DNA of 64,000 nt from a virus (Duplodnaviria; Caudoviricetes): the IMG/VR virus record IMGVR_UViG_3300009031_000368, positions 64,001-128,000 of that record. The stretch is one strand, 5' to 3'. The notes beneath the pieces were generated by a model, which saw only the letters and a list, made by a program, of their open reading frames with translations, did not search any database and had not been told where the DNA came from. The number at the start of each line of letters is the position of its first letter. Positions within the stretch are counted from its first letter, which is position 1. Below are positions 25,517 to 45,826 of this stretch, one piece after another. The position numbers and the translations under genes were made by a program.

Positions 25517-26044
25517 TTAAATTGATGGTTTGATTGAATCGGTGACTTTATCGGCTTGAAGAACTGTATCTTGAACTTCAATATCTGATTCAACAGTAAC
25601 TACAATCATCCGGACGCCCGGATTTGTTCCATATCTCTTACTGATTGTAATATTTACGACCTGATTATCATCCTTAATGACTACACCTTTTATTGCGTCC
25701 TCGACAAGTTTACAAATATTAGAGCAGTCAGGAGTAACTATTGGTAAAAGCTCATGTTTTAGCGCGGCCTCGTGCTTCTTTTTAGAAAATGAAGTCGGTA
25801 TAGGGAATGTCGCTTCTATCCGGATATGAACCGCGCCAACATATGGTGGTCGTACCGTCTCACCGTTCTGGTACGCTGTTGCCGCATAGAATCTCACTTC
25901 AGCCTCACGGCTCACCGTTTCTGGATCCGCGTATGTTGACACAAATTTTCCGACACGTCTAAATTTTGGAGACTTCTTTCCTGCCGGTTTCCCTGGAACA
26001 AAAATATCAATCAATGTTTGCTGCAACTGATGGCACTCCTTCAA
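25517..26044 (-). CDS. rusA: RusA-family Holliday junction resolvase
   Basis: VPGKPAGKKSP, VTPDCSNICKLVEDAIKGVVIKDDNQVV; the first Asp of the usual PDxDN motif appears as PDCSN. Confidence 0.8.
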   Translation of the reverse strand: MKECHQLQQTLIDIFVPGKPAGKKSPKFRRVGKFVSTYADPETVSREAEVRFYAATAYQNGETVRPPYVGAVHIRIEATFPIPTSFSKKKHEAALKHELLPIVTPDCSNICKLVEDAIKGVVIKDDNQVVNITISKRYGTNPGVRMIVVTVESDIEVQDTVLQADKVTDSIKPSI

Positions 26045-26417
26045 TCTCTATATCGCAATGTGTTATGATGAAACCATCATCGATAACGTTATCTGTTGTG
26101 GAACCATATCCGGATAACCTGGCGCTGATTGAATATATGGGCTGTCGTTGTTCAAGAATCTGATGTAAAATATTTCCTTGTGGTGTCGCAACAATTTCGA
26201 TATCTGCGACCACTATATCATCGTCATCAACACACATCTCCGTTACACGGTGTGATACTTCGCCCAGCTTCGAGTCTGACGCTGAACCAGTATAGATACG
26301 ACCATACATTGGAAATATTGCCCGGCCGATGGCACGTTCAACGACTTCTCTGGGATATATGTTGCCATTACGGGTTGGCTGGCCGGTTTTCATTCCTTTC
26401 ACATTACATATCTTCAT
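26007..26417 (-). CDS. Truncated paralog of the prohead protease; catalytic ELDHP motif absent
   Basis: GQPTRNGNIYP, VSHRVTEM, IVATPQGNIL and ISARLSGYGST align to 13475..16801. Confidence 0.85.
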   Translation of the reverse strand: MKICNVKGMKTGQPTRNGNIYPREVVERAIGRAIFPMYGRIYTGSASDSKLGEVSHRVTEMCVDDDDIVVADIEIVATPQGNILHQILEQRQPIYSISARLSGYGSTTDNVIDDGFIITHCDIEIEGVPSVAANID

Positions 26418-26941
26418 TTACTATCCCGGTGTTCTTTTCTAACCTGTACCAGTAATTGAATTTCTGGCTCAGACAATCCAGTATTCTCTCTAAGATAGAC
26501 AGCATATTGTTCGTCGTCATACCCGCGACTATTGGCATATGATGCAAGCCAAGACACTGTTGTTATTTGTCGCTCTCTCAATATTGAATCAATATCCTCA
26601 TCAGAAAACTTCATTATATTCTTTAACATCCATTGGCTCGAAAGCCTGTCGGCTGCTACATTTCGTTCGTTTTGCAATTTCTCGATTTGTGCATTATTCA
26701 AAACCAGATACTCCACAATAGTCTTTTTGAACTCATCTTCATTGAAGTCATTCATTTCAACATATTGTGCAATCAATTGCGCGGCCATGGTGATGCTGTT
26801 AGACATCTGACTAGATAACCATTCCGGTTCAGGAAATCTGTCACCGTCGATATCTTTCAATACATAATTCCGCATATCACGAACACGGCCCATTTGGATA
26901 TCGATCAATTCACTCATTAAAGTCTTAACGTCCATTATCAT
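26414..26941 (-). CDS. Paralog of the portal C-terminal region
   Basis: IDGDRFPEPEW / NAQIEKL / SSQWMLKNIMKFSDEDIDSI versus portal IDKDPDESEW / LSQIEAL / SLTWCLKNVMQFTDDEIVEI. Confidence 0.8.
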   Translation of the reverse strand: MIMDVKTLMSELIDIQMGRVRDMRNYVLKDIDGDRFPEPEWLSSQMSNSITMAAQLIAQYVEMNDFNEDEFKKTIVEYLVLNNAQIEKLQNERNVAADRLSSQWMLKNIMKFSDEDIDSILRERQITTVSWLASYANSRGYDDEQYAVYLRENTGLSEPEIQLLVQVRKEHRDSK

Positions 26942-27107
26942 TTCTCCTCTTAATCGCCATTTTTAAGTTGTTAAGATAATGCTTCGCCTGAACATCTGAC
27001 AGACTACCAACATCTATAAAGAATGCCAATCGTTCTGTAACCGGCATACGCTTCATTCTGACTTTTCCATCTGTTCCAATCGTCTTACAATATTTCATAA
27101 CTGTCAT
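26925..27107 (-). CDS. 60-aa paralog of an internal portal segment
   Basis: ERLAFFIDVGS is identical (11/11) to the portal; SDVQAKHYLNNLK versus PESEARQYINRLK. Confidence 0.85.
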   Translation of the reverse strand: MTVMKYCKTIGTDGKVRMKRMPVTERLAFFIDVGSLSDVQAKHYLNNLKMAIKRRNDNGR

Positions 27108-27790
27108 CCCTTTCCATATCTGGCTTCAATCGCCAATCTGCCTAGCTCAACTTCATCATCTGACATCATCACGGTATCTGATTCACCAATCTCGTTATAG
27201 GTTATTGGAACCGGTGGGCTAAAAACATATCCGGCATCCCGTTTAGCTTCCGCCTCTACTTTTGACTGCAACTGTTTCAACAGATCTTTAATGGTCTCTG
27301 TTGGTATTTCTTTCATCGCTGCTTCAATAGCCGCTTGCGCCGATGCCATCTCTTCATCGGTAAACCGTCTGGCGCTATTGGTGCCCATCCGGCTCTCAAC
27401 CGTATACCATTTTGGTGTATCGGTTAAGCTGTCACCGGTCGTTGTTTCAGACGTTGTGCCATCTTCAAAGAATGACGCATCATCGATCATTGCACCATAC
27501 TTATGGATGCCGCGTAACGGTTGAAAAGAACATATCGGCGTTGCAACGATTCTAACATGACTGATCTGACTACATCCATGGATGCATCCACCTGGAATAA
27601 ATATTGGCCATGCACTGGTCTGTGTCGTTATCGGACATCCGCACCAACAATTACCTACGTTTTTACTCTCCATCACACTCGTCCTCTGATTGATCGCAAC
27701 ATTCAAATGTGTGACAGATGCTGTTGACATAAATATTACTTTTGCCTTTTTCTGTAATGATGTAAAAGCTTGGGATAGTCTTTTGTTCAA
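27104..27790 (-). CDS. Protein containing a paralogous fragment of the TerL ATPase (Walker B region)
   Basis: LRGIHKYGAMIDDASFFE versus TerL LLGRNVYGGALDEANFYE; RFTDEEMASAQ versus SFTDERVKAAR. Confidence 0.65.
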   Translation of the reverse strand: MNKRLSQAFTSLQKKAKVIFMSTASVTHLNVAINQRTSVMESKNVGNCWCGCPITTQTSAWPIFIPGGCIHGCSQISHVRIVATPICSFQPLRGIHKYGAMIDDASFFEDGTTSETTTGDSLTDTPKWYTVESRMGTNSARRFTDEEMASAQAAIEAAMKEIPTETIKDLLKQLQSKVEAEAKRDAGYVFSPPVPITYNEIGESDTVMMSDDEVELGRLAIEARYGKG

Positions 27791-28157
27791 AGTATGCCAA
27801 GCGCATCGTTACACCTGTTTCTTGCTGAATATCGGAAATATGCTTCAATACTGTTTCAACATTAGGGACGACACGGAATCCAGTTAAACGGCTGTCTGGA
27901 TTAACGAAAGCATTCATGTCAACAGTATCGCCATTTTCTTTAAATGCGAAGCCATTAACCGACGAAACGACTACACTTGGAGTCCACTTTCTGAAAGTAG
28001 TGTGGTGCATGATATCACTGTGTTCAACCATACCGCCAAGCCTGTCTTCCAGACTATCCGACACATATGTTTCCAAGTCTTTAGTCACCCGAGCCACATC
28101 CATTTTCAGAACACCGATATCATCAATAATAAGGTTGACATCACTGACTGTCTTCAT
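27663..28157 (-). CDS. Hypothetical protein, tandem paralog of 28154..28690
   Basis: Shared SVNGFAF, VPNxxxVxxH and ETGV motifs. Confidence 0.7.
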   Translation of the reverse strand: MKTVSDVNLIIDDIGVLKMDVARVTKDLETYVSDSLEDRLGGMVEHSDIMHHTTFRKWTPSVVVSSVNGFAFKENGDTVDMNAFVNPDSRLTGFRVVPNVETVLKHISDIQQETGVTMRLAYFEQKTIPSFYIITEKGKSNIYVNSICHTFECCDQSEDECDGE

Positions 28158-28690
28158 TGTCCGTCTCCATTCGCAAACCAGTCTAAATCGTTAGACTCTT
28201 CAGAATCGCACATACAATTTTCACAATGGTCTTCATAAAATGAAACGTATAACTTATTACGTTCGCCATTCTTGTACACATGAAACCTGTTAACCGTCTG
28301 TTGTTCACAACGGGCAAGCATCACTTCCACACCTGTTTCTTCAGAAATTGCCCTTAAATGTTCCATAACAACATCATGGTTTGGCACAAGCCGTTCTCCG
28401 CCTGTTTCCTCTTGAAAATTAGGACCAATATCAATCGTACCACCATCATCAGTAAATGCAAATCCATTAACAGATGTTACTGCAACGTACGGCCTATATG
28501 GAAACTGAACGTCATGAACATCGCTATCCTGATAGAAATTATCTGTATGAAATACAGGCATACCGATTCTAGCATCCAATTGACTATCGATGTACTCTGA
28601 TAACTGCTGAATCTTTGTATCAATATCAAAACTTAGTGTGGCAGTCTGCCGGATTAATTGTTCCACTTCTTTTGCCATTACCATAAACAA
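28154..28690 (-). CDS. Hypothetical protein, tandem paralog of 27663..28157
   Basis: Same shared motifs; 4-bp start/stop overlap. Confidence 0.7.
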   Translation of the reverse strand: MFMVMAKEVEQLIRQTATLSFDIDTKIQQLSEYIDSQLDARIGMPVFHTDNFYQDSDVHDVQFPYRPYVAVTSVNGFAFTDDGGTIDIGPNFQEETGGERLVPNHDVVMEHLRAISEETGVEVMLARCEQQTVNRFHVYKNGERNKLYVSFYEDHCENCMCDSEESNDLDWFANGDGQ

Positions 28691-28691
28691 T

Positions 28692-29033
28692 TTATCCTTT
28701 CTTAATTGTTTTTACCAAATTGAAAGATGAATCATATACCTTGGTGTCATCGTCAGGCTTTGAACCATACAATGCAACAAATACCGGACAATCGATTTGT
28801 CTCGATAGTTGTTTCAAATAGATTGAGTCACCAATAGCCTCATTAATCGAGGCATTCCTAGCAAAACATATTCCAACGACACCATTGTCATTCGCATATT
28901 TAATCGGAAATTTATATCCTATTGCACTAACAAGCTTATAGCTGTCGGTACGACATAGCGCATCATGTATCCGAGCATTCAAAAGCCAATCTGGCTTTCT
29001 GAATAGTATTTGTTTAATTGTCTCTTGTTTCAT
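28692..29033 (-). CDS. Hypothetical protein
   Basis: 113-aa ORF in the operon. Confidence 0.55.
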   Translation of the reverse strand: MKQETIKQILFRKPDWLLNARIHDALCRTDSYKLVSAIGYKFPIKYANDNGVVGICFARNASINEAIGDSIYLKQLSRQIDCPVFVALYGSKPDDDTKVYDSSFNLVKTIKKG

Positions 29034-29045
29034 TTTGCAATTTAC

Positions 29046-30014
29046 CTACACTGAGAAACAAATATCTTCCAACTGACATTCCTTAGCTCGTGGACATGAC
29101 CTGGTGCCACATATGCGTTTTGGCAGTGGACCACCATCCAATCCTTCACGCAGCGCAATGATGTTGGATCTGATTTCATCGAACTGTTGTTGGTCTCTAT
29201 TTACGAATACTTCCAGCCAACTATCCTTAATGCTGTTGGTGCTCTTGTCCAGGAATACGAATCTCATCCTACGCCGGTTAGCGGTAGCTAGATAGAATTG
29301 CGCCTGAACCTTATACTTGTCATAAATGTCACCATTCCTGAATCCCTTCATGCTCCATCCGTTGGCTGTTTTGAATTCCCACATATCGGTAGGAATTGGA
29401 TGGAAGCCATCGGTGTGTCCATGAATCCCTAACTCATGGTCTACAAGATAAAGCTCCACATACTCGAACATAACCGGCACAACTTCCCATGCCTCGCCGC
29501 ATTGCTCGCACACTTTATTGGTATACGATTTATCGATTTCCGGATCCCGGTTACGCTTACACTCATTGTGACATTTTACACAAATCAACGTCCCTGACTT
29601 AAATCCACAACCATCGCATCCATCCGGCATAACGGTCGGCTCACTGAATGAACCATGAATCCTGTTACAATTGCTGCACTTCCATTGACCTGTCAACAGC
29701 TTTCGTGGGCCAAGGATTTCGTTCTGAAACACGTAATGCAATCCGGTTCCAATTGCCATCGCCCACTTAATGTCAGAACTCCATGGCTTGGTTCTGATGA
29801 TATCATGACGCGCGGCAAGAACTTCCTCCCTGGCACAGACACCACCTAATCCGCTCGCCCTGATATACGTACCTGATTTCATCGGCCGGATGGTGTCTTC
29901 ACTCTTTAGATTCTCAATACCCCAATCAACAAGCCTTACGTCTCGGATCGGGATGGTTGATTCTTCAACGGTTGAAGTATCCTTTTTTATCGACTTTATA
30001 ATATTGCCTAACAT
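29046..30014 (-). CDS. Cas4/RecB-family PD-(D/E)XK exonuclease with Zn-ribbon insertions
   Basis: RASGLGGVC, GTGLH, GHTDG, WEFKT, QAQFY and a C-terminal CxxxxCxxxxxCxxxxxC cluster. Confidence 0.8.
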   Translation of the reverse strand: MLGNIIKSIKKDTSTVEESTIPIRDVRLVDWGIENLKSEDTIRPMKSGTYIRASGLGGVCAREEVLAARHDIIRTKPWSSDIKWAMAIGTGLHYVFQNEILGPRKLLTGQWKCSNCNRIHGSFSEPTVMPDGCDGCGFKSGTLICVKCHNECKRNRDPEIDKSYTNKVCEQCGEAWEVVPVMFEYVELYLVDHELGIHGHTDGFHPIPTDMWEFKTANGWSMKGFRNGDIYDKYKVQAQFYLATANRRRMRFVFLDKSTNSIKDSWLEVFVNRDQQQFDEIRSNIIALREGLDGGPLPKRICGTRSCPRAKECQLEDICFSV

Positions 30015-30021
30015 TTGTTTC

Positions 30022-30366
30022 CTAATCTGGCTTTACGATTACTTCAAATTCTACAAACCACACCAACCGACCTGTTCCGAATGCCGCTCCAGTTTTACGC
30101 TTTCCATCAAGGAAATCTTTAATGGCTTCATCACGCGACCTGTTGCCAAGCTGACGCGCCATAGTTTCAGTCAAATCCGTCAACTTAAGACGTCGTGTGG
30201 TTCTGATTCTTACAACGGCAAACGGACCATTCTTTTCAGAGACATGAAGCGTTTGAACACTTCCTTCCGGTAATTCTGGAACATCTGTCGGCCAAGATCT
30301 AAGAAAGGCATTAATTTTACCGGTCAATATCTGTTCTCGTTCTGTTTCATTATATACAATCGCCAT
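30022..30366 (-). CDS. ASCH/PUA-like domain protein
   Basis: EREQILTGKINAFLR...EGS...AVVRI...LTDLTETMARQLG...VWFVEFEV. Confidence 0.6.
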   Translation of the reverse strand: MAIVYNETEREQILTGKINAFLRSWPTDVPELPEGSVQTLHVSEKNGPFAVVRIRTTRRLKLTDLTETMARQLGNRSRDEAIKDFLDGKRKTGAAFGTGRLVWFVEFEVIVKPD

Positions 30367-30382
30367 ACCTTATCCATTCTGT

Positions 30383-30640
30383 TTAATTCATACATTCTTT
30401 AGCTGTATGTATCATTTCTTCTAACAACTGGTCAACGGTGACATATGGAAGCATACCGTTTAACTGCTCTTCCGTCATTTCCGGACTATATAGCATCACA
30501 ATCTCTCGTGCCAACATCCTTCCGGTATTCACACCAAGCGCATAACTTTCATGCTCTAAGCTGAACGGCTCTTTTATCCTGCTCACCGTTAATAGAAACC
30601 TGAATTTTGTGTATTCATCGTTATCCATCATCTCCACCAA
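30383..30640 (-). CDS. Hypothetical protein
   Basis: 85-aa ORF in the operon. Confidence 0.5.
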   Translation of the reverse strand: MVEMMDNDEYTKFRFLLTVSRIKEPFSLEHESYALGVNTGRMLAREIVMLYSPEMTEEQLNGMLPYVTVDQLLEEMIHTAKECMN

Positions 30641-31013: not shown

Positions 31014-32255
31014 TTAACGCATCCTTTCGATCTTTAAACCACCATCAGTTTCGATAGACTGTAGAAACATTTTAGCATGACGGATGGCGTTTGTAACGAA
31101 TGGTGATACATTGTTGTAATCATTTGTATCGACAATCACCACATCATATTGATGTGGTGGATCAAATCCTTCATGACTATCTTTCGTCGCTTTGATGCAA
31201 TCAATCTGTAACAGCCTATCCATCACCTGACTATTATCAAATCGAAGGAACGGTCTCGGATATAGCGGCTTAGCGAAATCAAGTAATGTCGATGCCCGCT
31301 GATTGCCAATATACAAAATTCTCATGTCTGAATTACTTTGTGTTGATCGGAAGTAACAATACCACAACCCGGCCAACATCATCGCGGTTGATTTTCCAGT
31401 CGCCCTGCTACCAGTTACCAGATATTTTCCATCCGTGGCAGTTCCGGTACGACATGCAAACATACCATCCAAAACCTGGTAAGTATTGTAACGTTCGTTT
31501 CTTCGGTCCATTCCCCATATTGAACCAAGATATTCGACCAGAGTCTTTGGCTTTTTATTATCAACCGCTGGCCCATGCACACCATAGACGGCCAATTGCT
31601 GCTGTGACAGATTATCAAAATTCCTGGATATCGACAAATCGCCATCGGTTGAATTATAAACGATAACGCTACACCAGTTATTTCCAATCCTTGATTGCAT
31701 TCTGGAACGCATGTCATTATATGACAATGCATCTTGTAAGGAACCTCTGACATCAAAAGTTAATGCATCCCAACAAGTCATCACGACATTACGTCCTAGT
31801 GTCATACATTGAAATGTAGAACTACCAACTGGACGGACTGAGATAGCCACGCCAATTGTATTAAACACAATATCACTATTTAATCTAATATTTCCATTCA
31901 ATCCAGCTGAGTCAAGTACATGACATAATGCTTTTGCCAGAGATCGCCCTTCGTTAGTGTAATAAAGGATCGTAATCGGCGCATTAGGTGCCAGTCCAAT
32001 CATCTGTCGATACCGTTCACCACCAATCTCCTGTATTTGTTTAATATATCCCGCAATCAATTGCATTGTGGCAGTCGTCTTACCGGAACCTGGACGGCCT
32101 GAAATTCTAATGGTGCCTGTTGGAAATACATCGGGCAGCTTGCCTAATGGAATGGACTTTCCTGTTTCCTCTTCCATTACAAACTGTTTGAGAACCTCAA
32201 TCGCATCTGTTACTTCTTTTCGGTTACCGGTATCTACCTCAATTGACAGTTTCAT
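31014..32255 (-). CDS. Tandem degenerate P-loop protein paralogous to the TerL ATPase domain
   Basis: ISGRPGSGKTT, RQMIGLAPN, LGRNVVMTCWDALTF and MRSRMQSRIG versus TerL ISGGVGTGKST, RQLGLMDG, LGRNVYGGALDEANF and LLSRIRSRFTG; second P-loop VTGSRATGKST. Confidence 0.7.
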   Translation of the reverse strand: MKLSIEVDTGNRKEVTDAIEVLKQFVMEEETGKSIPLGKLPDVFPTGTIRISGRPGSGKTTATMQLIAGYIKQIQEIGGERYRQMIGLAPNAPITILYYTNEGRSLAKALCHVLDSAGLNGNIRLNSDIVFNTIGVAISVRPVGSSTFQCMTLGRNVVMTCWDALTFDVRGSLQDALSYNDMRSRMQSRIGNNWCSVIVYNSTDGDLSISRNFDNLSQQQLAVYGVHGPAVDNKKPKTLVEYLGSIWGMDRRNERYNTYQVLDGMFACRTGTATDGKYLVTGSRATGKSTAMMLAGLWYCYFRSTQSNSDMRILYIGNQRASTLLDFAKPLYPRPFLRFDNSQVMDRLLQIDCIKATKDSHEGFDPPHQYDVVIVDTNDYNNVSPFVTNAIRHAKMFLQSIETDGGLKIERMR

Positions 32256-32271
32256 ACATTTACCTTTCTAT

Positions 32272-33129
32272 TTACTTTAATGGTCCAACCGACACGATCA
32301 TCTCTTCAACAAATTGCCGGTTTGCTTTACATGACACCATTCTGGCTACTGGATGTGTCGATACATGGACGAACGGCGGTGACGGGTAAATCTTTGTAAC
32401 CGTATCCTCCGTCTTATGATTCGTAATAACCACCTTCGCACCAACGTTTGCCGCGTCAACCGCTAACGCTGATAGTCGGTAATGGTCGGCGTCACCAAGC
32501 CATAATGGCCCATACTCTTTAAAATTAGCCGTGGCGGAAAGTGGCACATATGGTGGATCGCAATAGATGTGGTCACCGGATTGAGCCTGCTTTAGGATTT
32601 TACCAAAGTCGCCCCATAGGAATTCAGTATTCTGAACGCAATAAGAAATCATCCTAAGATCGGATTCATGCGGCAATGCAACGTATTGATACTTACCTAC
32701 CGGGCTGTTGAAGACTCCAGACTTATTCTCTCGATACAATCCATTATAGCATGCATGATTGAGCCAAATCATCAGCGCGGCCTGTCGGACGTTAAACTGC
32801 TCAGCTGTTACCATATCATTGAATTCCTTCTTCAAGGAATCATAATGGGCTTCAAATCCGACAATCGGTAGTGACTTCAACTCCTGCATCAAGGCATCGA
32901 TATTATCTCTAACCTGTGTCCATGCATTAATCAACTTCCGGTTGCCGTCTGAAAGCTGCGCCGTTTGTGCCATTCCGGATGAAAGGACATAAAGCTCTAA
33001 CGCGCCACCACCCAGGAATGGAGACCGAAACGTTCCTTCGCACTTCTTTCCAAATGCCGCCGCAATATATTGTGCCAGGCGCGACTTGCCGCCTGCCCAC
33101 TTCCAGGGAGACTTAACTGTTGCTGCCAT
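32272..33129 (-). CDS. dam: Dam-family DNA adenine methyltransferase
   Basis: SPWKWAGGKS, PFLGGG, NHACYNGLYRENKSGVFNSPVG, IYCDPPY. Confidence 0.9.
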   Translation of the reverse strand: MAATVKSPWKWAGGKSRLAQYIAAAFGKKCEGTFRSPFLGGGALELYVLSSGMAQTAQLSDGNRKLINAWTQVRDNIDALMQELKSLPIVGFEAHYDSLKKEFNDMVTAEQFNVRQAALMIWLNHACYNGLYRENKSGVFNSPVGKYQYVALPHESDLRMISYCVQNTEFLWGDFGKILKQAQSGDHIYCDPPYVPLSATANFKEYGPLWLGDADHYRLSALAVDAANVGAKVVITNHKTEDTVTKIYPSPPFVHVSTHPVARMVSCKANRQFVEEMIVSVGPLK

Positions 33130-33149
33130 TTTCTACCTTCTCTTCAACT

Positions 33150-33995
33150 TTAATTAGCCCATGATAAATCTAACCATCGCAGTATGTTACAAACTTGACC
33201 AGTATCGCAATTTACTACACTATATCCAATTGATTTCTTTCCACACCATGGTTTCCATCTTTCGACCGGCCCACGATTGCCTGACACATAACAAACGGCA
33301 TCAAATATTCCAATCTTTTCCGCTGCTATACGATCAGTTAGTTCATACAGTCGTTCGTAAAACATACGTTCTGCTTCATCGGGCGACACTGGAATAATTG
33401 TTTCCTTCAACGGCTCCACGTTGATGTTCCATTTCAATCCGCCATCCTTCATGAGATCGCGCTTTTCGGTCACCAATAACACATTGTCGGCATACTTGAG
33501 ATACCATGGTTCAACGTCGGGCAATCCGAGCCATCTCCAAGCTGTTGACATCCCGCGCTTTTCCACATCCCGGTATGGTTTCATTTCCGGCATATATTTC
33601 AATGGCCGGACGATATCGGACAGATATGCTTCCATGGTCTCATGAAACAATCCATACATGCCGCCGATTCGACATTCCAATTCACTGCAACAGTGACTTC
33701 TCAATATCGATTCGATCAATCGTGAAACTCTAACCGAGTGTTCGGCAACCGAGTAGAATTTGAGACAATGACCGCAAAACCGGCAAAGCTTACTCAGTGA
33801 TGCCGCAATATCTTGTACGCTGAAATCCTCAACCCGCACATCTAGTGGATAAAACTTTCGCGCCGAATATGTTTGCGACCAGTCACCATGACGTGGTTCA
33901 CTGTTGGCTTGAAGTCCATTTATGTCAGCAATGGTCTGCCTATCTATTTCAGACATCATGTTCCATAATGATTCATTGTAACCGTCATGTATCAT
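33150..33995 (-). CDS. HD-superfamily phosphohydrolase (YfbR-like; HD appears as HE)
   Basis: SKLCRFCGH, YSVAEHSV, LFHETMEAYLSDI, KYADNVLLVTE. Confidence 0.75.
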   Translation of the reverse strand: MIHDGYNESLWNMMSEIDRQTIADINGLQANSEPRHGDWSQTYSARKFYPLDVRVEDFSVQDIAASLSKLCRFCGHCLKFYSVAEHSVRVSRLIESILRSHCCSELECRIGGMYGLFHETMEAYLSDIVRPLKYMPEMKPYRDVEKRGMSTAWRWLGLPDVEPWYLKYADNVLLVTEKRDLMKDGGLKWNINVEPLKETIIPVSPDEAERMFYERLYELTDRIAAEKIGIFDAVCYVSGNRGPVERWKPWCGKKSIGYSVVNCDTGQVCNILRWLDLSWAN

Positions 33996-34255
33996 ATGAA
34001 CCGCCTTACCGGCACAAGCATTTCGTCATCACGCAAACGGTATAACCAGCCAGCTATACTGAATCGACGTTCACATTTAACCATTTTGAGCTTGATGTCA
34101 ACTGCACCATTGTTCCCGTTTATATCATCAAAAACCGTCGCAATCTGCCATCCAATAATGCGGATTAGTGGATTGATGACTACATTTAACAAACTTCTAT
34201 GGCTAACGATGTTACCAGCAGCATCTACAACGATACCTAGATTTAAACAAATCAT
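33992..34255 (-). CDS. Hypothetical protein
   Basis: 87 aa; 4-bp overlaps on both sides. Confidence 0.55.
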   Translation of the reverse strand: MICLNLGIVVDAAGNIVSHRSLLNVVINPLIRIIGWQIATVFDDINGNNGAVDIKLKMVKCERRFSIAGWLYRLRDDEMLVPVRRFI

Positions 34256-34572
34256 GATGGGCTCTTTTCGGTTGCCTGATTGAATGTAAGCGTTATGCCT
34301 CTCTGATAGAAAGAAAGCCTAACATCATTGTCCAAATGATAACCGTTTAGCATCGATACGAATTCAGCACAGCTATCTGTTGTCTCGAACTGAAACAAAT
34401 AATAGGAGTGTCGTATCGTCTCTGGTTTTATTATACATAGTGTAGCAAGCTCTTCAGAAACCGCATAGCTCTCTGTTTCCAGCACGCAAAACACGCCTGT
34501 AGTTGCTGCCGACAATCGTTCCATATATGGTTTTACAAAAGATTCTGCGTCCAGATGAGTTTCAACAATCAT
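34252..34572 (-). CDS. Hypothetical protein
   Basis: 106 aa, in the operon. Confidence 0.55.
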   Translation of the reverse strand: MIVETHLDAESFVKPYMERLSAATTGVFCVLETESYAVSEELATLCIIKPETIRHSYYLFQFETTDSCAEFVSMLNGYHLDNDVRLSFYQRGITLTFNQATEKSPS

Positions 34573-34591
34573 TGCTTTATTTCCTTTATCA

Positions 34592-35839
34592 TTAAGCCGT
34601 TAATTCGGCCAATCTATTTTCTACCATTTGCCTAACTAGGTCATATTCAAACCGGTGCGTCCGCCACCATTCACGGATCGCCTTCTGCGACGAAAATTCC
34701 TCACCGGCCAGATAATACTTATTGCCTTCCTGTTGAATCAGTTCCAGCTTCATACAGATTGAAAAGATGTAATCCGATTCAAGAATCTGTCCAAGCCGTA
34801 CTCCGCGCTCCGGATTATTGGTGAGCGACATACGGAAGGATCCATCGCGCAACGGCGCACCAGTTTTATTCTTTGTAACCTTGAAATTCACAGTAATTTC
34901 CAGCGGAACCTTAACTTTATCATCCTTGGCGGTTCCGATTTGAACTTCCTCAACAACTTTGTCGGATGTCCAAAACCTCACATCCAGCGAATCGGCAAAT
35001 TCTTGTCCCTTCCCACCAGGTCTGGTCGTTGGATCACCATATGACATTCCTATTTTTTGTCTGATCTGTTGGAGACAAAGAATCGTTGGCGCCGTATGAA
35101 AGTTGTTATACGCTTCATTCGTACCGGCAACCCACTTCCTAAACGCCTTATTTAGCAACCTGGCTTGAAGACCCTGCTGCCAGTCCTCCGAAGAAGATTC
35201 TATTTCCTTGGATGGTGTCAGTGCGGCAATGGAATCAATGATGACCAAATCTATTGAGCCACTCTGGATAGCTGAACTGACAAGATCAATGGTTCGCTCT
35301 GCCGTTTCTGGCTGACTAAGAAGAAGCCGGTCTAGGTCAACGCCATGAAGTTCTGCCCAACCTGGATCGAAAGTGCCTTCTTGATCAAAGAACCAACAAA
35401 TGAATTCTGAGAATGAATTCTGCTGGAGTCCGGCCAGTCGCTCCTTGTATTCCTTATCCTTTTCATTCGGCCACTGAACCGGAATCCATAATCCAGCCTT
35501 TACGCAATCACATGTCGCTATTGCACGCTTGTTGGTGCCTGTTTCATCAGTTACATCTTCAACATGGAGATCGCGCGGTTCACGCCAACAATGCCTGCAA
35601 AGCCTTTGCGCGGCTGCAATCACCATACATGCTGCCGTTGTTTTTCCTGAACTACATTCACCAAAAAATTGTGTAATGCGGCCTCGCGGGACACCACCAC
35701 CGGTTGCATGATTGAAGCTAACTGAACCAATCTTAATTCTATCAAGCTTCGGGATAGACCTTGCAGAACGTACCACGTCATAGCTGTATGTTTTATCCGC
35801 CGCTTTCACTATCTGATTAATTACATCGAATCTATTCAT
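34592..35839 (-). CDS. recA: RecA/UvsX recombinase with a Cys-rich insertion
   Basis: GGGVPRGRITQFFGECSSGKTT, FFDQEG, LLSQPETAE, VIIDSIAAL, QARLLNKAFRK, PGGKGQEFADS, KVTKNK. Confidence 0.93.
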   Translation of the reverse strand: MNRFDVINQIVKAADKTYSYDVVRSARSIPKLDRIKIGSVSFNHATGGGVPRGRITQFFGECSSGKTTAACMVIAAAQRLCRHCWREPRDLHVEDVTDETGTNKRAIATCDCVKAGLWIPVQWPNEKDKEYKERLAGLQQNSFSEFICWFFDQEGTFDPGWAELHGVDLDRLLLSQPETAERTIDLVSSAIQSGSIDLVIIDSIAALTPSKEIESSSEDWQQGLQARLLNKAFRKWVAGTNEAYNNFHTAPTILCLQQIRQKIGMSYGDPTTRPGGKGQEFADSLDVRFWTSDKVVEEVQIGTAKDDKVKVPLEITVNFKVTKNKTGAPLRDGSFRMSLTNNPERGVRLGQILESDYIFSICMKLELIQQEGNKYYLAGEEFSSQKAIREWWRTHRFEYDLVRQMVENRLAELTA

Positions 35840-36373: not shown

Positions 36374-36387
36374 AGTAAAAATATTCC

Positions 36388-37014: not shown

Positions 37015-37016
37015 GG

Positions 37017-39286: not shown

Positions 39287-39443
39287 CCTTGATTTAAGGG
39301 ATCACGATTCCGTGTTGCCGCGAAACGTAAATATTCCAAACTTAAAGCATAGAATATCTCAAACGGCACTGACGGCATAATAGCACAAGTTGAGGAATAT
39401 GGAGGAATGTGATTGCTGATTTGGCAGGATGATGTGCTGAAGT

Positions 39444-41135
39444 TTACTTTGTGGTCTTTGCATTTGTCTTCCGGATGGAAGGCCCGCTAAATATGCTACA
39501 TGATTTAACTTCTGGCTCATAGTCAGTATTTTCTACTCGCCGCATGCCTTCTGGGATAATAACCACATATTTGCCAACAACGCCAGGATGTGCGGTTAGT
39601 AGTGCAACCCATGAATTGACAAAGTGTTTATTGTATGAATCAATATGATAGATAACAGGAGACCCGGGAGCGCCTTTAGTACTACGTCGTTGCCCATACA
39701 ATGCTGCTTCTGCGATATCATTAGAATTGTTTTCACTTACATGATTCACACCTTTCCAGGTTTTATCTTCACATAGAAATCCACGGATACGAAGGATTTG
39801 CTCTGCCTCTTCTCTCGATGAAACAATATGCTTGCTGTAGTCTCGTACAGTTTTATACGGAGACCACGGCCTAATTCTGTCAGCCAACTGAACACCACGT
39901 TTTACAAGCTCTTCAGCAGAAATACGGCCAGCCGCATACAGAAAGACATCCCTGTTGCCATATACGCGGATTTTACAATCTTTACCCTTGTAAGATCCTC
40001 CGTAATGTGCAACACGAAGCATTGCCTGTGCCATCGTGGCATAGTTGCTGGAACCCACTGGACGGTAATCATGCCAGAACGAAATATACTGATGGAATTT
40101 AACCTCCGTTGATCTTGTTGCCGTTTGAGCAATCAACAGAATCGTCTTACGCTTTTTAAGAAAAACAGCGTCACAAAAGCTGGTAGCCCAATCGAATTCT
40201 TTGTTTTTGTAATCATCATCATCGGTTGTATTACTCTGAGCAGAGTCGCACCCAATAAACTTCACATCGAAACCACGTTCAGTTAATGACTTCACAAAGT
40301 CACAGCCTTCCGCCCTGATCTTTTTGAATCCATCAACGAAACGGATAACGCCAAAATACTTACCTCGCTGCGATTTGAAAAGCTTTATGGCTTCCGCGCC
40401 TTGTGCCGTAAAGCAGTTGTTGTCGAAATCCCAAAACGGTTTTGCTTCGTACATCAACTTATTGTCAAGCGACCAACCTGCCCCACGGTAATCTGCCGAT
40501 GGAATAAACGTCTTAACGATGAAATCGCCAGAAAGTCGACTATACGTGACTTCCTCATTCGTCGCTGAATACATGATAAACTTTACGCGCCGATTGTACC
40601 AAAGTGCATAAAACAAACCATCAGTATTGAGACACTGCTTTTTGTCGGTCCCGTAATCAGACTCATTAAGATGGATGACTACGGAATGTTCCTGGTTGAG
40701 ATCCAGGTACTGAGTGATCTCTTCAACAAGCTCAATCATCTTTGCACGCTTGTAAATTAGCCGAAGCCGAAGATTATGCTTTCCAAGTCTGACACGCTGG
40801 CTGGCTTCGTCGCGTCTGTTGAACGCACTTACATAATATTGCCTGTTGAGACCATTTGTCTTATACGCCCGTAAGGCATAAATCATCTTCATGATGCTTT
40901 TCCCGCACTTAACTGGTGCGTTCACCGCGACATGGCTGTTGATTAATTCCAGTTCAGCAACAAATGCTGTTGCTTCAGGGCAAGCCCGCTCAAGTTCCGC
41001 AAGATTCTTCACGTCAACGGACGGGTTAGTCACAATCAAAGACATACTCAAAATCTCCAGATGTAAGTGGAATATCGACAGAGTGCCAAGCCATACGACA
41101 TGGGCCATATTGGCATATCGACATGAATATGTCAA
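39444..41135 (-). CDS. Divergent SF2 helicase-like/P-loop protein (likely start ATG 41045)
   Basis: APVKCGKS Walker A-like, HLNESDYG Walker B-like, MYSAT motif III-like, QAMLRVAHY motif VI-like. Confidence 0.5.
   Translation of the reverse strand: MTYSCRYANMAHVVWLGTLSIFHLHLEILSMSLIVTNPSVDVKNLAELERACPEATAFVAELELINSHVAVNAPVKCGKSIMKMIYALRAYKTNGLNRQYYVSAFNRRDEASQRVRLGKHNLRLRLIYKRAKMIELVEEITQYLDLNQEHSVVIHLNESDYGTDKKQCLNTDGLFYALWYNRRVKFIMYSATNEEVTYSRLSGDFIVKTFIPSADYRGAGWSLDNKLMYEAKPFWDFDNNCFTAQGAEAIKLFKSQRGKYFGVIRFVDGFKKIRAEGCDFVKSLTERGFDVKFIGCDSAQSNTTDDDDYKNKEFDWATSFCDAVFLKKRKTILLIAQTATRSTEVKFHQYISFWHDYRPVGSSNYATMAQAMLRVAHYGGSYKGKDCKIRVYGNRDVFLYAAGRISAEELVKRGVQLADRIRPWSPYKTVRDYSKHIVSSREEAEQILRIRGFLCEDKTWKGVNHVSENNSNDIAEAALYGQRRSTKGAPGSPVIYHIDSYNKHFVNSWVALLTAHPGVVGKYVVIIPEGMRRVENTDYEPEVKSCSIFSGPSIRKTNAKTTK
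41107..41135 (-). promoter_or_regulatory. Sigma70-like promoter candidate
   Basis: TTGACA (41135-41130), 17 nt, CAATAT; GGAG RBS before ATG 41045. Confidence 0.4.
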
Positions 41136-41236
41136 GCAAATTTCAAGAAAATAATTCGGGCTGGATTATAGATGTTTAGTTTTAGAACTTAGAGATTTAT
41201 TACGTACGGAATATGTTGAAAATAGAAACAGGATTG

Positions 41237-42136
41237 TCATGTAAGCAACTTCTCGTTATCAGCTGCCCATAATTCTTTTGATTCTTGCAGAACTTTGCTG
41301 TAATCCGTATCAGGGTAGCGCTTATTTCCAGACAGAAGCTCATCCAATGGCGTCTTTAGCTTCATGCTCTCATCTTTGGAAAGCTTTCCTTCCCATGCAT
41401 GGTACCTATCTGCAATCTGTTGAAAATATTCCTTATGCGCTAGAAACCACTTCAACCCATCATCCAGGTTGCCGCCACGGTCCAGTAACGCCATTGTCTT
41501 AATTTCAGACAAATGAGCCGTTGCAGCAACGACGTCAGGAGTGACATCTGAATCAGCATACATATTGGTCAACTGTACCAATTCGGCCAATCCGCCAAGC
41601 CCTGTTTTATCAACTTCGATTGTTTCTTTGCCAAGAAACATTTTTGCATGTCCGCATGACTTTATCATCCGTATAAAATCATCGTCGACTTCATACTCTC
41701 TTATATATTCATTGAAGTTGATACTGCAATATCTCTTAACTGGAATACGCTCTTCAAACTGCTTCGTGGCTTCAACGATTCTACTCTTTAGCTGTTCGTC
41801 AAACGATTCCTTGACCGGTCTTATGTTTCTAACATTGTCTATCATCAGAACGGAAACAATGTAACCAGTTTTTGTCGTCAACTCCACACAATAGACGTTT
41901 GCCGTAAATCCGAATTCATGCTGGATCAGACATTCAACAGATGATTGCTTTTTCTTGTTACAAGTCACGTGTCCGAATACTTCAGTAACCGTCTGAAATG
42001 CTCCAGCAAGCCTGTCATAGTCACTTAAAGTCGAAGCAAATTCAAAAGACAGCGCATCATCTAATTTTTCAGTCACCGATTGACTCATCGCCATCCTCCT
42101 TTTCCACAACAGTAGAACTGTCTGCCAACGGGTCAC
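41237..42136 (-). CDS. Hypothetical protein
   Basis: 299-aa ORF (likely start at MSQSVTE). Confidence 0.6.
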   Translation of the reverse strand: MTRWQTVLLLWKRRMAMSQSVTEKLDDALSFEFASTLSDYDRLAGAFQTVTEVFGHVTCNKKKQSSVECLIQHEFGFTANVYCVELTTKTGYIVSVLMIDNVRNIRPVKESFDEQLKSRIVEATKQFEERIPVKRYCSINFNEYIREYEVDDDFIRMIKSCGHAKMFLGKETIEVDKTGLGGLAELVQLTNMYADSDVTPDVVAATAHLSEIKTMALLDRGGNLDDGLKWFLAHKEYFQQIADRYHAWEGKLSKDESMKLKTPLDELLSGNKRYPDTDYSKVLQESKELWAADNEKLLT

Positions 42137-42320
42137 CGTAAACTTGAATCATATTCTCAATATCTTCGTCGCTGGCTTTCCATCCATTCGCTCCAACTGG
42201 ACACGGTGGAAAACCATCCGTTGCAAAAGTAGTCTCTAATAGAATTTTTTTAATGTCACCAAATGCTTTTTTCTCTAATTCGCTGTCACAAACAACCATT
42301 TCTTCATTTCTATACATCAT
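42069..42320 (-). CDS. Hypothetical protein
   Basis: 83-aa ORF. Confidence 0.5.
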   Translation of the reverse strand: MMYRNEEMVVCDSELEKKAFGDIKKILLETTFATDGFPPCPVGANGWKASDEDIENMIQVYGDPLADSSTVVEKEDGDESIGD

Positions 42321-42341
42321 TTAAATAACCTCATATTATCG

Positions 42342-43016
42342 TTACCTTAAATTCAATACTATGTAAAATTCCGGCCTTGCTGGATGTTGGAAGCAATTTA
42401 CCGTAATTTTGTCATGTTGTTCCATCACGTCACCGATACCCACCAGATATCCGGCGTCATAGCTTGACCGTCCTTTAAAGCCAAGGATGATTTGTCGTTC
42501 AGGCACAACTGGGTGAGTAAACACCTTTAACTGCAAATATCTGGATGTTCCGATTTCGGTTAACCCGGTACCTGGTTCTGCCGTTCGGTTTAACGCTACA
42601 TCTGGAATTGTCTTATCGTTGACAATCATGAACGTTGCTGGACTTCTAATCGTATCGGTATGTATGGTGTTTGACGCAACACCAATTTCCAATTCAAGCT
42701 TTTCGGCATCAACATCCATCACGTTAGCTCTCGACATAATGCCACAAACGGCTGACCGCTCAATGGTCGCAATGATGTCGTTCAATGCTTTCGCCTTAAC
42801 GGTTTGCAACATGTCTGGACCAACCTGTTTATCGGCTATGTCGAGATTTATTTCTTGCACGCTACCATCTTCGCCTTTAACGACTTTTGCCATATACCAG
42901 TGCAGCGAGGTATCTTCACTTACATCATGAATTCCAACAATACTGTTTAGACTAGAGCCTTTAAGTGCCGACATCAACTGACTTCTAACATCACTCATTG
43001 TTTTATTCTCCTTCAT
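42342..43016 (-). CDS. Paralog of the C-terminal half of the major capsid protein
   Basis: SVQEINLDIADKQV / SNTIHTDTIRSPATFMIV / IILGFKGRSSYDAGY versus MCP QVPEINIEISMEVV / SAQIHTGSMRAPANWIVT / ILVGLKGQSYLDSGY. Confidence 0.85.
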   Translation of the reverse strand: MKENKTMSDVRSQLMSALKGSSLNSIVGIHDVSEDTSLHWYMAKVVKGEDGSVQEINLDIADKQVGPDMLQTVKAKALNDIIATIERSAVCGIMSRANVMDVDAEKLELEIGVASNTIHTDTIRSPATFMIVNDKTIPDVALNRTAEPGTGLTEIGTSRYLQLKVFTHPVVPERQIILGFKGRSSYDAGYLVGIGDVMEQHDKITVNCFQHPARPEFYIVLNLR

Positions 43017-43485
43017 TAGTTTTTAATCGCTCAATACGAAACATTACATCAATAAAAATTTTACCATCCACGGCTTGCGCTATCAATGACTTAGACGCCG
43101 CAACGGCAAGACGGTTCAACAAATATTCTTCATCGTCCATGTGGTATGGAATACCCGGCTCATCTTTATAATAAAATAAGCACGCATTCAATGCGTTGAC
43201 TGTCGCGTCATCATATGCTGTAACTATATCATCGAACGGATAATATATAATTGTAATGCCAGCATCTGTCAGATTAGAAGCTGTTCGTTGTATTGCCATA
43301 AACAATAACCTGACAAACCTTCTTACCTGATCTCGAAATTGTTTGACACCTTCGTCAGCAATATCCTTCACATATTGAAGCTGTCTATCATAAATTGAAG
43401 CTAACGCTAATTTATCTCCACAATATGTATTGCTAATCAGTGGCTTCCACTTTTCGACAAGTTCATTATTCACCGTTTCATCCAA
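43003..43485 (-). CDS. Paralog of the N-terminal part of the major capsid protein
   Basis: NELVEKWKPLI...LASIYDRQLQYV...LLFMAIQRTASNL versus MCP NRVVRNWAPLV...TAILLNNQYNFV...YLFPAIRRIFPNL. Confidence 0.75.
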   Translation of the reverse strand: MDETVNNELVEKWKPLISNTYCGDKLALASIYDRQLQYVKDIADEGVKQFRDQVRRFVRLLFMAIQRTASNLTDAGITIIYYPFDDIVTAYDDATVNALNACLFYYKDEPGIPYHMDDEEYLLNRLAVAASKSLIAQAVDGKIFIDVMFRIERLKTNEGE

Positions 43486-44725
43486 TCATGTATTGTGGTT
43501 TTACCCATCGGCTCATCCACTCAAGCGGCTCCGACAAAGCATACAGCTGACGGAATTCCTGTATATACTGATTGGCTGTTTCGTAACCGGTGACATACAG
43601 CGCATTCTCGAAAGACCGTGCCGCTGAATCGGTAAAGTTAAATGAACCGGTCCATACCGCGTATGGCACCAACACGTTGACGTTACCGAATCGTGATGGC
43701 ACATACTGCCTCTCATATCGGCAGAACACCATAAACTTATGGTGCATTCTTTCTGACGCCTGATTCTCACGGTCACAATTTCCCACACATCGAACCGGAT
43801 CCACGTTGGTTCCTTCACCTAACAGCAATCCAATATCGTTGTATCGGTTCAACCCGCAATGCAGCTTACCGTATGATGCCTGTAACCGCCTAACGAAATC
43901 TGAACCGTTATCGTCCGGCCGGAGGAAATCTTCCTTTTGAACCAGTATCGCGCAATCTTTTTCCGACAATGCATCCAGTATACGCTTACTTGTCATCCAA
44001 GCCACACATCCGACAACGGCATCTGCTTCATGGATGTAGGCAGTGAGCGCCGTCGATAGATTCCTGAAATGGACACTGACACTTGCGTCAATATTCATCC
44101 TTGTATAATCATGTTGCGCGAATCCACCGGAACCTGTTGGTAGTTTTACATCGTTTAGATTTTCAATCCGCTTTACCGCTGTCGATTGTGCAATTGATTG
44201 CGCGTTATCTGAAACAACCTTTGCTTCTACTTCTGGATTACCAACTGGTGGTCCATCAACCACTACCTTCTTTTTCGTAGGTGTCTTTGCGCGCTGCCAC
44301 TGACGGTACATCTTGCCAACATCAAGCGCACCATCTTTTTCTTTCGCGATCCATGCTGTGGCGCGAGATTCACCAATAAGAAGTGACATCACAGAACTGT
44401 AAAAGAAATCATCGAACGGTGGCTCTGGTAAAAAGTGTTGTTCCGCTGGATGTCCTGTAGTTAGCTTGACGCCATCATTGTAAAACTTCTCGCGGATCTT
44501 AACCGCGTACTGAAGTTGTCCATCCGTAGCTGTTGGAAACTCCGGCCAGCCACGCTTAACCTGTTCAACGTAAAGCTTACCGACATATTCCTCGTGACAC
44601 GATGGACATTCCTTCAATTTCCATTCAGCAATTCTGTCTTCGTATCCTGGCGATAGCGTGAACTCCTTTTGGCTAAAATGTCCACAACTCATCTGAAGTT
44701 GAAATCGCTTTTTACCATATCCCAT
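43478..44725 (-). CDS. Zn-ribbon protein fused to a PLD-family (HKD) nuclease domain
   Basis: N-terminal SCGH...CPSC; C-terminal RMHHKFMVF...VWTGSFNFT...FENAL. Confidence 0.8.
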   Translation of the reverse strand: MGYGKKRFQLQMSCGHFSQKEFTLSPGYEDRIAEWKLKECPSCHEEYVGKLYVEQVKRGWPEFPTATDGQLQYAVKIREKFYNDGVKLTTGHPAEQHFLPEPPFDDFFYSSVMSLLIGESRATAWIAKEKDGALDVGKMYRQWQRAKTPTKKKVVVDGPPVGNPEVEAKVVSDNAQSIAQSTAVKRIENLNDVKLPTGSGGFAQHDYTRMNIDASVSVHFRNLSTALTAYIHEADAVVGCVAWMTSKRILDALSEKDCAILVQKEDFLRPDDNGSDFVRRLQASYGKLHCGLNRYNDIGLLLGEGTNVDPVRCVGNCDRENQASERMHHKFMVFCRYERQYVPSRFGNVNVLVPYAVWTGSFNFTDSAARSFENALYVTGYETANQYIQEFRQLYALSEPLEWMSRWVKPQYMIG

Positions 44726-44740
44726 AAATCACATGATTCC

Positions 44741-45088
44741 TTATTTTACAACATATCCACACAGTATCTGACCGGCCATACGGTATTCGCCAACCGTTGG
44801 ATAAAATCTGCCGGTTCGTTCTATGAACTTACCATGCCACTGTTTACCGGTAGTTGTACAGGTAAACTGTTTTTCCGATAGTCCAGAAACGTGCATGAAT
44901 CCCTTAACGAGTCCTTCATGCACAATGAAACACTTACTTTTGCCTGGAATCAGACATTCTGGAAAATGCTTCACCTTATAATTCAATGTCTGGTCGGAAC
45001 ATGCTGCAAACAATTCTTTCTCGTAATCCGACCACTTGATTGACTTGGGAACAGTTACCGCTATATGTGGTGTCACGATTTTATCCAT
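44741..45088 (-). CDS. Hypothetical protein
   Basis: 115-aa ORF. Confidence 0.55.
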   Translation of the reverse strand: MDKIVTPHIAVTVPKSIKWSDYEKELFAACSDQTLNYKVKHFPECLIPGKSKCFIVHEGLVKGFMHVSGLSEKQFTCTTTGKQWHGKFIERTGRFYPTVGEYRMAGQILCGYVVK

Positions 45089-45612
45089 CTGAACCTGCCA
45101 ACACCGTCATACTCTAGCCACTTTTGCTTAACTAATAGCTCTGTCGCGATAGAAGACGAAAGCCCATCATCGGAATACCCTAACAGTTCATCAATTTTGT
45201 CACATATAACATCGGAGTCGGTCCATTCGGTAAAACATGAGAGCTGCAACAGTTCAATGCCTTCAGGCGTATGAAGAGTAATATCTCGTTTGCAATTATC
45301 GTCTAGATCTATCTGATGATTGCGCTCAAGTCTTTTAACCATCTTGGTAAATTTATTACAAAAACACGCTAACTTTGTCCAATCTACTTTACGCATAAAA
45401 GTTGTGCTGCTGTTAGGCAGACCACTACTAACGATCAATATGTATTCATCACCAATTTTTGAGACAGAAAATTGAAAAGGATTATTACGAAATTCATCCT
45501 CATCTATACTTGCTGTTAAAACAAAATCACTCATCAGATACTCCCGCAAGTCGCTTAAGCTCTCCTGTCGACGCCCCAAGTTCATCGGCGATATCGTTAA
45601 ACCCTGAATCAT
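45073..45612 (-). CDS. Hypothetical protein
   Basis: 179-aa ORF overlapping the upstream gene. Confidence 0.5.
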   Translation of the reverse strand: MIQGLTISPMNLGRRQESLSDLREYLMSDFVLTASIDEDEFRNNPFQFSVSKIGDEYILIVSSGLPNSSTTFMRKVDWTKLACFCNKFTKMVKRLERNHQIDLDDNCKRDITLHTPEGIELLQLSCFTEWTDSDVICDKIDELLGYSDDGLSSSIATELLVKQKWLEYDGVGRFRWIKS

Positions 45613-45826
45613 CTGGTGTAGGTTCTATATCCGGTTGTTCATCGGTATCGTGTTCCCATCGCCTAGAGGCAATCACCGACAATACATCAAGCTGCAACCT
45701 GGCGACATTTGTCACATTAGGATTTAAACATCCCATGGCTGCTTCCTGCTCTACTGAAAACTCGAGCCGTTTACGGTTCAAGCCTGCCAACATGACCAAT
45801 TCATCATATGTACTAAATTCACTCAT
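45527..45826 (-). CDS. Truncated paralog of the probable small terminase
   Basis: LNRKRLEFSVEQEAAMGCLNPNVTN versus LNSVRLETAMEQEASMGFLNPNVTN. Confidence 0.85.
   Translation of the reverse strand: MSEFSTYDELVMLAGLNRKRLEFSVEQEAAMGCLNPNVTNVARLQLDVLSVIASRRWEHDTDEQPDIEPTPDDSGFNDIADELGASTGELKRLAGVSDE

Follow-up and report, generated by a model that had tools for sequence, protein, structure and literature searches.

The DNA analysed here, referred to as the window, is a stretch of 64,000 nucleotides (bases 64001-128000) from the 231.7 kb IMG/VR phage contig IMGVR_UViG_3300009031_000368, which is judged ~76% complete. Nearly all genes of the window lie on the minus strand. Upstream of its true head module, and on the same strand, the window carries a group of small open reading frames (ORFs) that resemble shortened versions of the phage's own small terminase (TerS), large terminase (TerL), portal, prohead protease and major capsid protein (MCP). 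These shadow copies, marked below with a prime, are spread over 20 kb. In coding-strand order they run TerS', MCP', a TerL-like ORF, the ORF starting at 27104, portal' and protease', which is the order of the true module apart from MCP'.

26007-26417, minus strand: protease', 136 amino acids (aa); the body of the prohead protease without the catalytic His, the catalytic Ser or the parent's intein-like insert
26414-26941, minus strand: portal' B, 173-175 aa; extends the portal alignment as far as the crown domain
26925-27107, minus strand: portal' A, 60 aa; first part of the clip domain with the tip that docks terminase
27104-27790 (27104-27673 in other calls), minus strand: ORF of 189 aa with a Walker-B-like motif only; TerL ancestry not confirmed
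31014-32255, minus strand: TerL-like ATPase, 413 aa; Walker A intact, Walker B with Ala in place of Glu, and another Walker-A-like motif (residues 278-286)
42342-43016, minus strand: MCP' B, C-terminal half of the Gp23 fold; 218 aa when counted from the second ATG (42998)
43003-43485, minus strand: MCP' A, 156-160 aa; N-terminal piece, matching capsid residues 18-88
45527-45826, minus strand: TerS', 99 aa; central block of the putative small terminase, parent residues ~129-205

The parent genes form the true head module, in which two genes of no assigned function separate portal and protease.

11956-13455, minus strand: major capsid protein, Gp23-type (Pfam Gp23 4.1e-66)
13475-16801, minus strand: prohead protease, T4 gp21-type, 1108 aa, with a long C-terminal region fused (Pfam Peptidase_S77 4.3e-17; PDB 5JBL)
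19559-21292, minus strand: T4-type portal (Pfam Portal_T4 2.1e-60; PDB 3JA7 1.4e-19)
21305-23329, minus strand: large terminase (phrog_2 5.7e-8; precomputed PF27249; 71 related loci)
23329-24066, minus strand: putative small terminase, an assignment from position alone: it lies immediately upstream of TerL, and the two share the boundary 23329

Homology was tested by all-versus-all BLASTP of the window ORFs, by Pfam and PHROG searches, and with hidden Markov models (HMMs) and family alignments (hhalign) built from related IMG/VR phages. A sequence-only reading of this DNA had described all eight ORFs as diverged, truncated paralogs of the head genes. Profile, BLASTP or hhalign homology bears this out for seven of them, and 27104-27790 is not confirmed. 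In related IMG/VR phages, up to 18 of them, the small ORFs match the true genes for portal, protease and MCP. The HMMs built from relatives detect every one of these small ORFs, and TerS' as well, and not 27104-27790. Portal' A is 49% identical to the resident portal over 39 aa (BLASTP E 6e-8; hhalign 96.5%), matches Pfam Portal_T4 at positions 204-235 (2.8e-4), and matches the real portals of 18 related phages. Mapped via its parent, it corresponds to T4 gp20 residues ~275-311, where the stem ends and the clip begins. The clip domain of gp20 spans residues 279-358, and TerL (gp17) contacts N291, M292, R295 and K296 (PMC4493910); by the parent alignment and these domain limits, portal' A covers the tip loop whose T4 residues contact gp17. 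Portal' B aligns with portal residues 426-492 (BLASTP E 0.004; clade HMM 6.3e-4; hhalign 70.9%), matches the portals of 6 relatives, and has a GAGGAG ribosome-binding site of its own. Read through with an X at the junction, the two pieces are collinear with portal residues 254-524, straight across the +1 frame junction. The N-terminal wing is missing.

Protease' matches phrog_207, the head maturation protease family, at 7e-9 (six-frame search 6e-9; hhalign 81%), spans profile positions 47-168, and matches the real proteases of 6 relatives. In an alignment with six real and two other shadow proteases, other residues stand in place of the His of GELDHP and the Ser of the SSRG motif, and the Asp-strand is retained; the catalytic sites were also placed on the T4 gp21 reference alignment. 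The loss of catalytic motifs described earlier is thus real in this ORF, and also in the TerL-like ORF, where DEANF has become DALTF. phrog_207 matches the parent protease in two pieces. Residues ~92-482 of that protein are a ~390-aa insert straight after the catalytic His (GELDHP/C..., with Cys as its first residue, ending ...GN/S; slashes mark the boundaries), which looks like an intein with a LAGLIDADG-like endonuclease. The protease of another IMG/VR phage (G009) has a canonical intein a few residues after the His, near the same site (CLGLG..., LAGLIDTDG, ...SHN/S). Relatives also have TerL or portal ORFs of 1100-1470 aa with a split family match (G006 26498-30247 and 31337-35734, G022 9700-13014, LR756508 146009-149425), which suggests inteins in head genes across the clade. 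Two adjacent minus-strand ORFs immediately upstream of the shadow cluster, 27663-28157 and 28154-28690, are paralogs of each other (32% over 150 aa, 8e-23); neither matched a family.

Like the portal copy, the capsid copy is split into two ORFs. MCP' A aligns with MCP residues 19-88 (BLASTP E 0.004; clade HMM 3.5e-4; hhalign 83.6%). MCP' B matches Pfam Gp23 at 0.0016 (six-frame search 4.3e-4; hhalign 90.7%), and its second ATG (42998) is preceded by an AAGGAG ribosome-binding site. Together the two are collinear with MCP residues 18-496, minus ~120 central residues. Among 1.8 billion proteins, the sole database homologue of MCP' B is P0004 (L013:1081-2721, plus strand; 1.7e-8). This protein of 546 aa is a tandem of two Gp23 C-terminal halves and lacks any N-terminal half; its gene lies directly upstream of DNA polymerase III alpha (L013:2839-5439, plus strand) on an unrelated 21 kb contig, with five ~220-aa tandem paralogs downstream. 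A further MCP match was considered and set aside: the minus-strand ORF at contig positions 228793-229230 (145 aa), outside the window, resembles MCP residues 161-235 (36%, BLAST 2e-7; HMM positions 187-245). The same MCP region occurs in non-capsid proteins of 700-800 aa in this phage and in relatives, and the ORF is probably a shared insertion-type domain, not a capsid fragment.

TerS' is 51% identical to the product of 23329-24066 over 45 aa (BLASTP E 5e-9; clade HMM 1.5e-4; hhalign 94.4% over 77 columns) and is called as a 99-aa gene by independent pipelines. Its parent matched no Pfam or PHROG family. Fourteen homologues of the parent were found in the 10 kb flanks on either side of relatives' TerL genes, directly upstream of TerL where this was checked (L014). 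A complex prediction of TerS with TerS' scored 0.21, below the mark.

The two ORFs that had been assigned to TerL fared differently. Against a TerL profile of 64 sequences, 31014-32255 gave hhalign 91.5% (E 8.7e-7, 125 columns), with residues 48-194 aligned to TerL 104-256, a stretch that begins at Walker A and includes Walker B and the helix that follows. As a control, nine other Walker-A ORFs of the genome, RecA included, reached at most 31% over 15-41 columns against this profile. The ORF also matches phrog_2 (6.9e-4), and for its ESM Atlas model (pLDDT 0.61) the nearest structure clusters are terminases, including the PF27249 of the resident TerL (TM 0.46-0.49). An AlphaFold2 model made without an alignment was unusable (mean pLDDT 37). 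GRPGSGKTT is kept, and the HMM alignment places DALTF at the DEANF of TerLs. In P-loop ATPases, replacement of the Walker B glutamate is expected to leave ATP binding without hydrolysis. No nuclease domain was recognisable, and no homologue other than itself was found in 5.8 billion proteins. This ORF is quite likely derived from TerL. With the Walker B Glu lost and no nuclease domain found, its product is, as far as can be read from its residues, a TerL-derived protein and not a terminase.

The assignment of 27104-27790 as a second TerL paralog was not supported: hhalign gave 0.7-6.5%, and the clade HMM found no match to it genome-wide. An earlier TerL alignment of 4 sequences had given hhalign 0.7% and 9%; the 64-sequence profile raised 31014-32255 only, not 27104-27673. 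What speaks for a TerL origin of the 27104 ORF is a motif of ~20-40 aa (YGAMIDDASFFE vs YGGALDEANFYE) and its position before portal'. Its Smith-Waterman z is 3.2. The ESM Atlas gave no match to its model (pLDDT 0.46). Its codon usage is gene-like, and it overlaps the next ORF by a 4-nt ATGA.

The frames had been described as open and coupled, and so they are. There are 0 stop codons in ~1,270 codons, and 4-nt ATGA start/stop overlaps link ORFs. Every shadow ORF is called by independent gene callers, and the starts of portal' B and MCP' B are each served by a strong Shine-Dalgarno sequence. All eight ORFs have codon-usage scores of 0.18-0.26, compared with a mean of 0.22 for the phage's long genes and 0.03 for spurious overlapping ORFs, and in each of the eight the annotated frame is the best of six by codon usage. 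The statement that two compared blocks differ mostly synonymously was only loosely right; non-synonymous codon differences outnumber synonymous ones in both (16 vs 9, 22 vs 15). Third codon positions in the conserved blocks have reached saturation, with 29-34% identity, against 60-72% at positions 1 and 2. Over the pooled aligned blocks the proportion of synonymous differences (pS) is 0.79 (0.76 for random codon pairs), and that of non-synonymous differences (pN) is 0.47 (random 0.73), the latter measured on blocks chosen for similarity and thus biased low. Since synonymous sites are saturated, neutral sequence should hold many stops, and none was observed. By family conservation the crown block ranks at the 21st percentile and the N-terminal block of MCP at the 44th, so the retained segments are not just the best-conserved ones of their families. 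Large parts of each copy can no longer be aligned to the parent. The other contigs that contain these ORFs are 99.95-100% identical, and no ratio of non-synonymous to synonymous substitution rates (dN/dS) between orthologs can therefore be computed. Two of the outcomes that the sequence-only reading had named as refuting its idea, lack of homology and frequent stops, were looked for; seven ORFs proved homologous and no stop was found. By codon usage, frame and start signals, the copies are shown to be kept as translatable genes. We conclude that they have been under selection for most of their history; some, such as the split portal' and MCP', may now be eroding.

The copies differ in how close they stand to the resident genes. 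Among 15-36 family members, the resident parent is the nearest one to portal' A, to MCP' A and to TerS'; it ranks 1 of 15 for MCP' A and leads by far for TerS' (105 vs 61). For portal' B the resident parent ranks second, and for MCP' B and the TerL-like ORF it is no closer than other phages' genes. Protease' has no homologue except itself in 5.8 billion proteins. Taken with the alignments, these comparisons show that the origin of the copies lies in old duplications of head genes. The rankings are better explained by duplication events inside the lineage, which probably differ in age, than by import from an unrelated phage.

Comparable ORFs occur in other phages. G009, a complete IMG/VR genome of 275 kb with a TerL 29% identical, has a 139-aa protease-like ORF without the His and the Ser, which is the best G009 match of protease'. 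It overlaps the start of a 146-aa ORF that is 44% identical over 64 aa to the MCP of G009, and two further small ORFs match the portal of that phage in the same two regions as portal' A and B. LR756511 has a second protease homologue (8e-28) with Met in place of the His. It also encodes two MCP pieces and an 86-aa ORF with the clip segment found in portal' A (profile positions 205-235). The 86-aa ORF (L139, LR756511.1, 410484-410744, minus strand) begins with a twin-arginine-like signal (SRRNFLK, then a hydrophobic stretch), which would direct the clip mimic to the membrane or across it. In G017 (215 kb), a paralog of 374 aa (L122, 122871-123995) covers the TerL ATPase only; it is 41% identical to the TerL of that phage, with the Walker A Lys changed to Arg and the Walker B Asp to Glu. 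G022 has a 534-aa MCP-derived protein and a 179-aa portal-like ORF. At Pfam level, no shadow copies were found in LR756508. Pairwise scores among the shadow proteases of three phages were ambiguous and favour neither one common origin nor several.

Sequence 99.95-100% identical to this phage has been assembled independently from at least nine other metagenome samples, the named sources of which are groundwater, and an assembly artefact is thereby ruled out. The nearest deposited relatives of the capsid protein are the uncultured huge phages LR756511 (595 kb) and LR756508 (484 kb), at ~33% identity. The small copies lie among replication and recombination genes, namely those for RusA, Dam methylase, RecA, ClpP, UDG and a PLD-family nuclease, with primase just upstream. 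A near-consensus sigma-70-like promoter (TTGACA, 17 nt, TATCAT; 25466-25494, minus strand) and a terminator-like hairpin (25608-25623, minus strand) lie between RusA and the genes leading into TerS. These consensus matches may mark a transcription-unit boundary between the shadow cluster and the true head module. The T4 late-promoter motif occurs once in the window, below chance expectation, and sigma-70-like sites are not above chance, so the timing of expression is not readable from the sequence. A search for RNA sequencing runs that contain this stretch found none. The 12-bp palindrome GCAATYRATTGC has 18 sites in the window (0.1 expected by chance), about one every 3.5 kb, including those at 2530, 6496, 11084, 19420, 25443, 26769, 30907 and 32053; the sites at 26769 and 32053 are inside shadow ORFs.

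No described system of this form had been known to the sequence-only reading. That does not hold for the protease member. A truncated, presumably inactive "cryptic" paralog of the prohead protease has been published for the phiKZ-like giant phages SPN3US (gp117), 201phi2-1 (gp206, 145 aa) and PhiPA3 (gp143, 136 aa), and for Erwinia phages; its catalytic His cannot be aligned, and no function was assigned to it (PMC5694885, section 17, 2017). For the full set, our literature search found no report of dead portal, terminase and capsid copies forming a set, and no later work on the cryptic paralog. Like the gp117 type, protease' is a second, shorter, diverged gp21-type homologue encoded apart from the complete protease, and like PhiPA3 gp143 it is 136 aa long and presumed inactive, with the catalytic His lost. 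Unlike the gp117 type, it has lost the Ser too, belongs to another phage lineage, and is a member of a set with portal, MCP, TerS and TerL-like copies. A tblastn search of 50,697 phage records with protease' (E 0.1) gave no match, and no profile search against the gp117 homologues was made.

Other known proteins offer partial likenesses. In T4, gp24 is encoded beside gp23. MCP' is similar to gp24 in being a diverged intragenomic paralog of a Gp23-family capsid protein; it is unlike gp24 in that it consists of two ORFs, has lost ~120 central residues, and is located ~29 kb off among replication genes. Pseudoenzymes regulate active paralogs by pairing with them, as cFLIP does with caspase-8. The shadow copies share with them the kept fold and partner surfaces, the replaced catalytic residues and the active paralog in the same genome, the likeness being one of mechanism only. 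Small proteins of satellites of the PICI/PLE type redirect the capsid assembly or packaging of their helpers. The shadow copies are also small and related to capsid or terminase components (binding of such components is a feature of the satellites' proteins); unlike those proteins, they are located inside a phage genome and are derived from the lineage's own genes. No integrase or other satellite hallmark was seen in their surroundings. According to Kristensen et al. (2011), as quoted in PMC5694885, phage genomes rarely contain paralogs.

We consider that the copies have about an even chance of being retained, non-catalytic pseudo-subunits acting through the binding surfaces of their parents. 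They would be made as non-enzymatic pseudo-subunits, and would bind the parents' partners or co-assemble with the parents. Candidate roles would be a portal clip mimic for the terminase, a TerL core that binds ATP without hydrolysing it, a dead protease, a capsid-like pair (MCP') and a TerS oligomer block (TerS'). The copies would thereby tune, or compete with, prohead assembly and DNA packaging. The target may be either the phage's own assembly timing or a co-infecting relative or satellite. The retained segments count in favour of this reading, since they include the portal clip tip, where TerL docks in T4 (PMC4493910). Besides the downward bias of pN, several observations weigh against it. 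In the nearest relative, a contig of 137 kb whose TerL is 44% identical, the 10 kb upstream of TerS contain no shadow cluster. A complete relative of 160 kb is without copies, its only extra match being the insertion-type MCP domain in a 602-aa protein. Shadow sets differ between phages in composition and location, with no clear orthologous groups. This phage has no close relatives, and scanning IMG/VR with portal', MCP' and the real portal as single proteins gave no match. Portal' and MCP' each have one frameshift-like junction, with large internal deletions. A further reading, to which we give a rather small chance, is that huge phages with T4-type heads possess a recurrent shadow morphogenesis kit of dead, miniature proteins made before the real ones and acting on other parties instead of the phage's own assembly. 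The targets of such a kit could be the assembly and packaging of co-infecting relatives and satellites, or host sensors of the five proteins.

The splits and deletions are also what would be expected if the ORFs were non-functional relics of one or more duplications of the head module, tolerated because a huge phage with headful packaging has room, and slowly eroding. The 27104 ORF is almost unrecognisable, the composition among relatives is patchy and lineage-specific, with no copy in the complete 160 kb relative, and multi-copy sets occur only in phages larger than ~230 kb (this phage, G009 and LR756511, a small sample), all of which suits relics. Saturated synonymous sites, however, predict tens of stops in ~1,270 codons if an estimated ~4% of substitutions lead to a stop, and the frames hold none. 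Codon usage is fully gene-like, and ribosome-binding sites have been kept or newly used at the split points. The similarity is concentrated in blocks, whereas neutral decay predicts an even spread, and less diverged members elsewhere are long intact ORFs (TerL' of G017, protease' of LR756511). Decay is the main rival reading and on balance unlikely. It is less likely still that the copies are ordinary minor components of the head or prohead core encoded outside the structural module, such as a vertex or core protein, or cargo targeted via an MCP-like N-terminal propeptide. The N-terminal region of T4 gp23 includes a cleaved propeptide, and MCP' A keeps the N-terminal region of its parent. T4 gp24 is a full-length structural protein and the vertex paralog of gp23, and giant phages have many families of head paralogs, with long propeptides used for targeting (PMC5694885), which gives this explanation its precedents. 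The copies are nevertheless located among replication genes rather than beside head genes, MCP' is split and lacks the middle third, the portal pieces are without the wing that contacts the capsid (PMC4493910), and the set is not conserved in relatives with the same head module.

Two further explanations turn on defence. In the first, which we regard as very unlikely, the copies would serve as decoys, occupying the host's terminase, portal or capsid sensors (Avs, CapRel, Lit) but not setting them off. Avs1-4 sense TerL and portal. The parents here include TerL, portal and MCP, all of them reported sensor targets (PMC13581612 for MCP), and the copies are catalytically dead and sit among genes usually expressed ahead of late genes. 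Avs-type sensors envelop conserved core phage folds and assemble on binding, and short motifs of MCP are what Lit and CapRel recognise (PMC13581612). A protein resembling the target may therefore activate a sensor instead of blocking it, and fragments without most of the fold may not bind at all. PADLOC found no defence family among the shadow ORFs, only a trivial Walker-A match for 31014-32255 (7.7e-4), which argues against decoys. We know of no sensor of the prohead protease or of TerS, and yet both have copies here. The absence of a PADLOC match also speaks against the other proposal, in which head-protein-like sensors paired with neighbouring nucleases would form phage-borne modules against competing phages. 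Its support is adjacency: a PLDc_2 protein (43478-44725) is directly upstream of MCP', and the RusA gene (25517-26044) shares bases with the end of protease'. Genes for RusA and PLD enzymes are, however, common in phage replication and recombination, and the MCP'-like P0004 is not beside a nuclease in its contig. This proposal appears highly improbable.

In sum, the only published dead copy of a head-assembly enzyme that we found is the cryptic protease of the SPN3US type, and here such a copy belongs to an almost full set, in which the packaging motor, portal, protease and shell are all represented, with comparable pieces in three or four other huge phages. If the copies are relics, huge phages hold gene remnants far longer than small phages do. 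If they are working pseudo-subunits, they would represent a new layer of control of, or conflict over, virus assembly, and would provide natural mimics of the portal-terminase docking surface.

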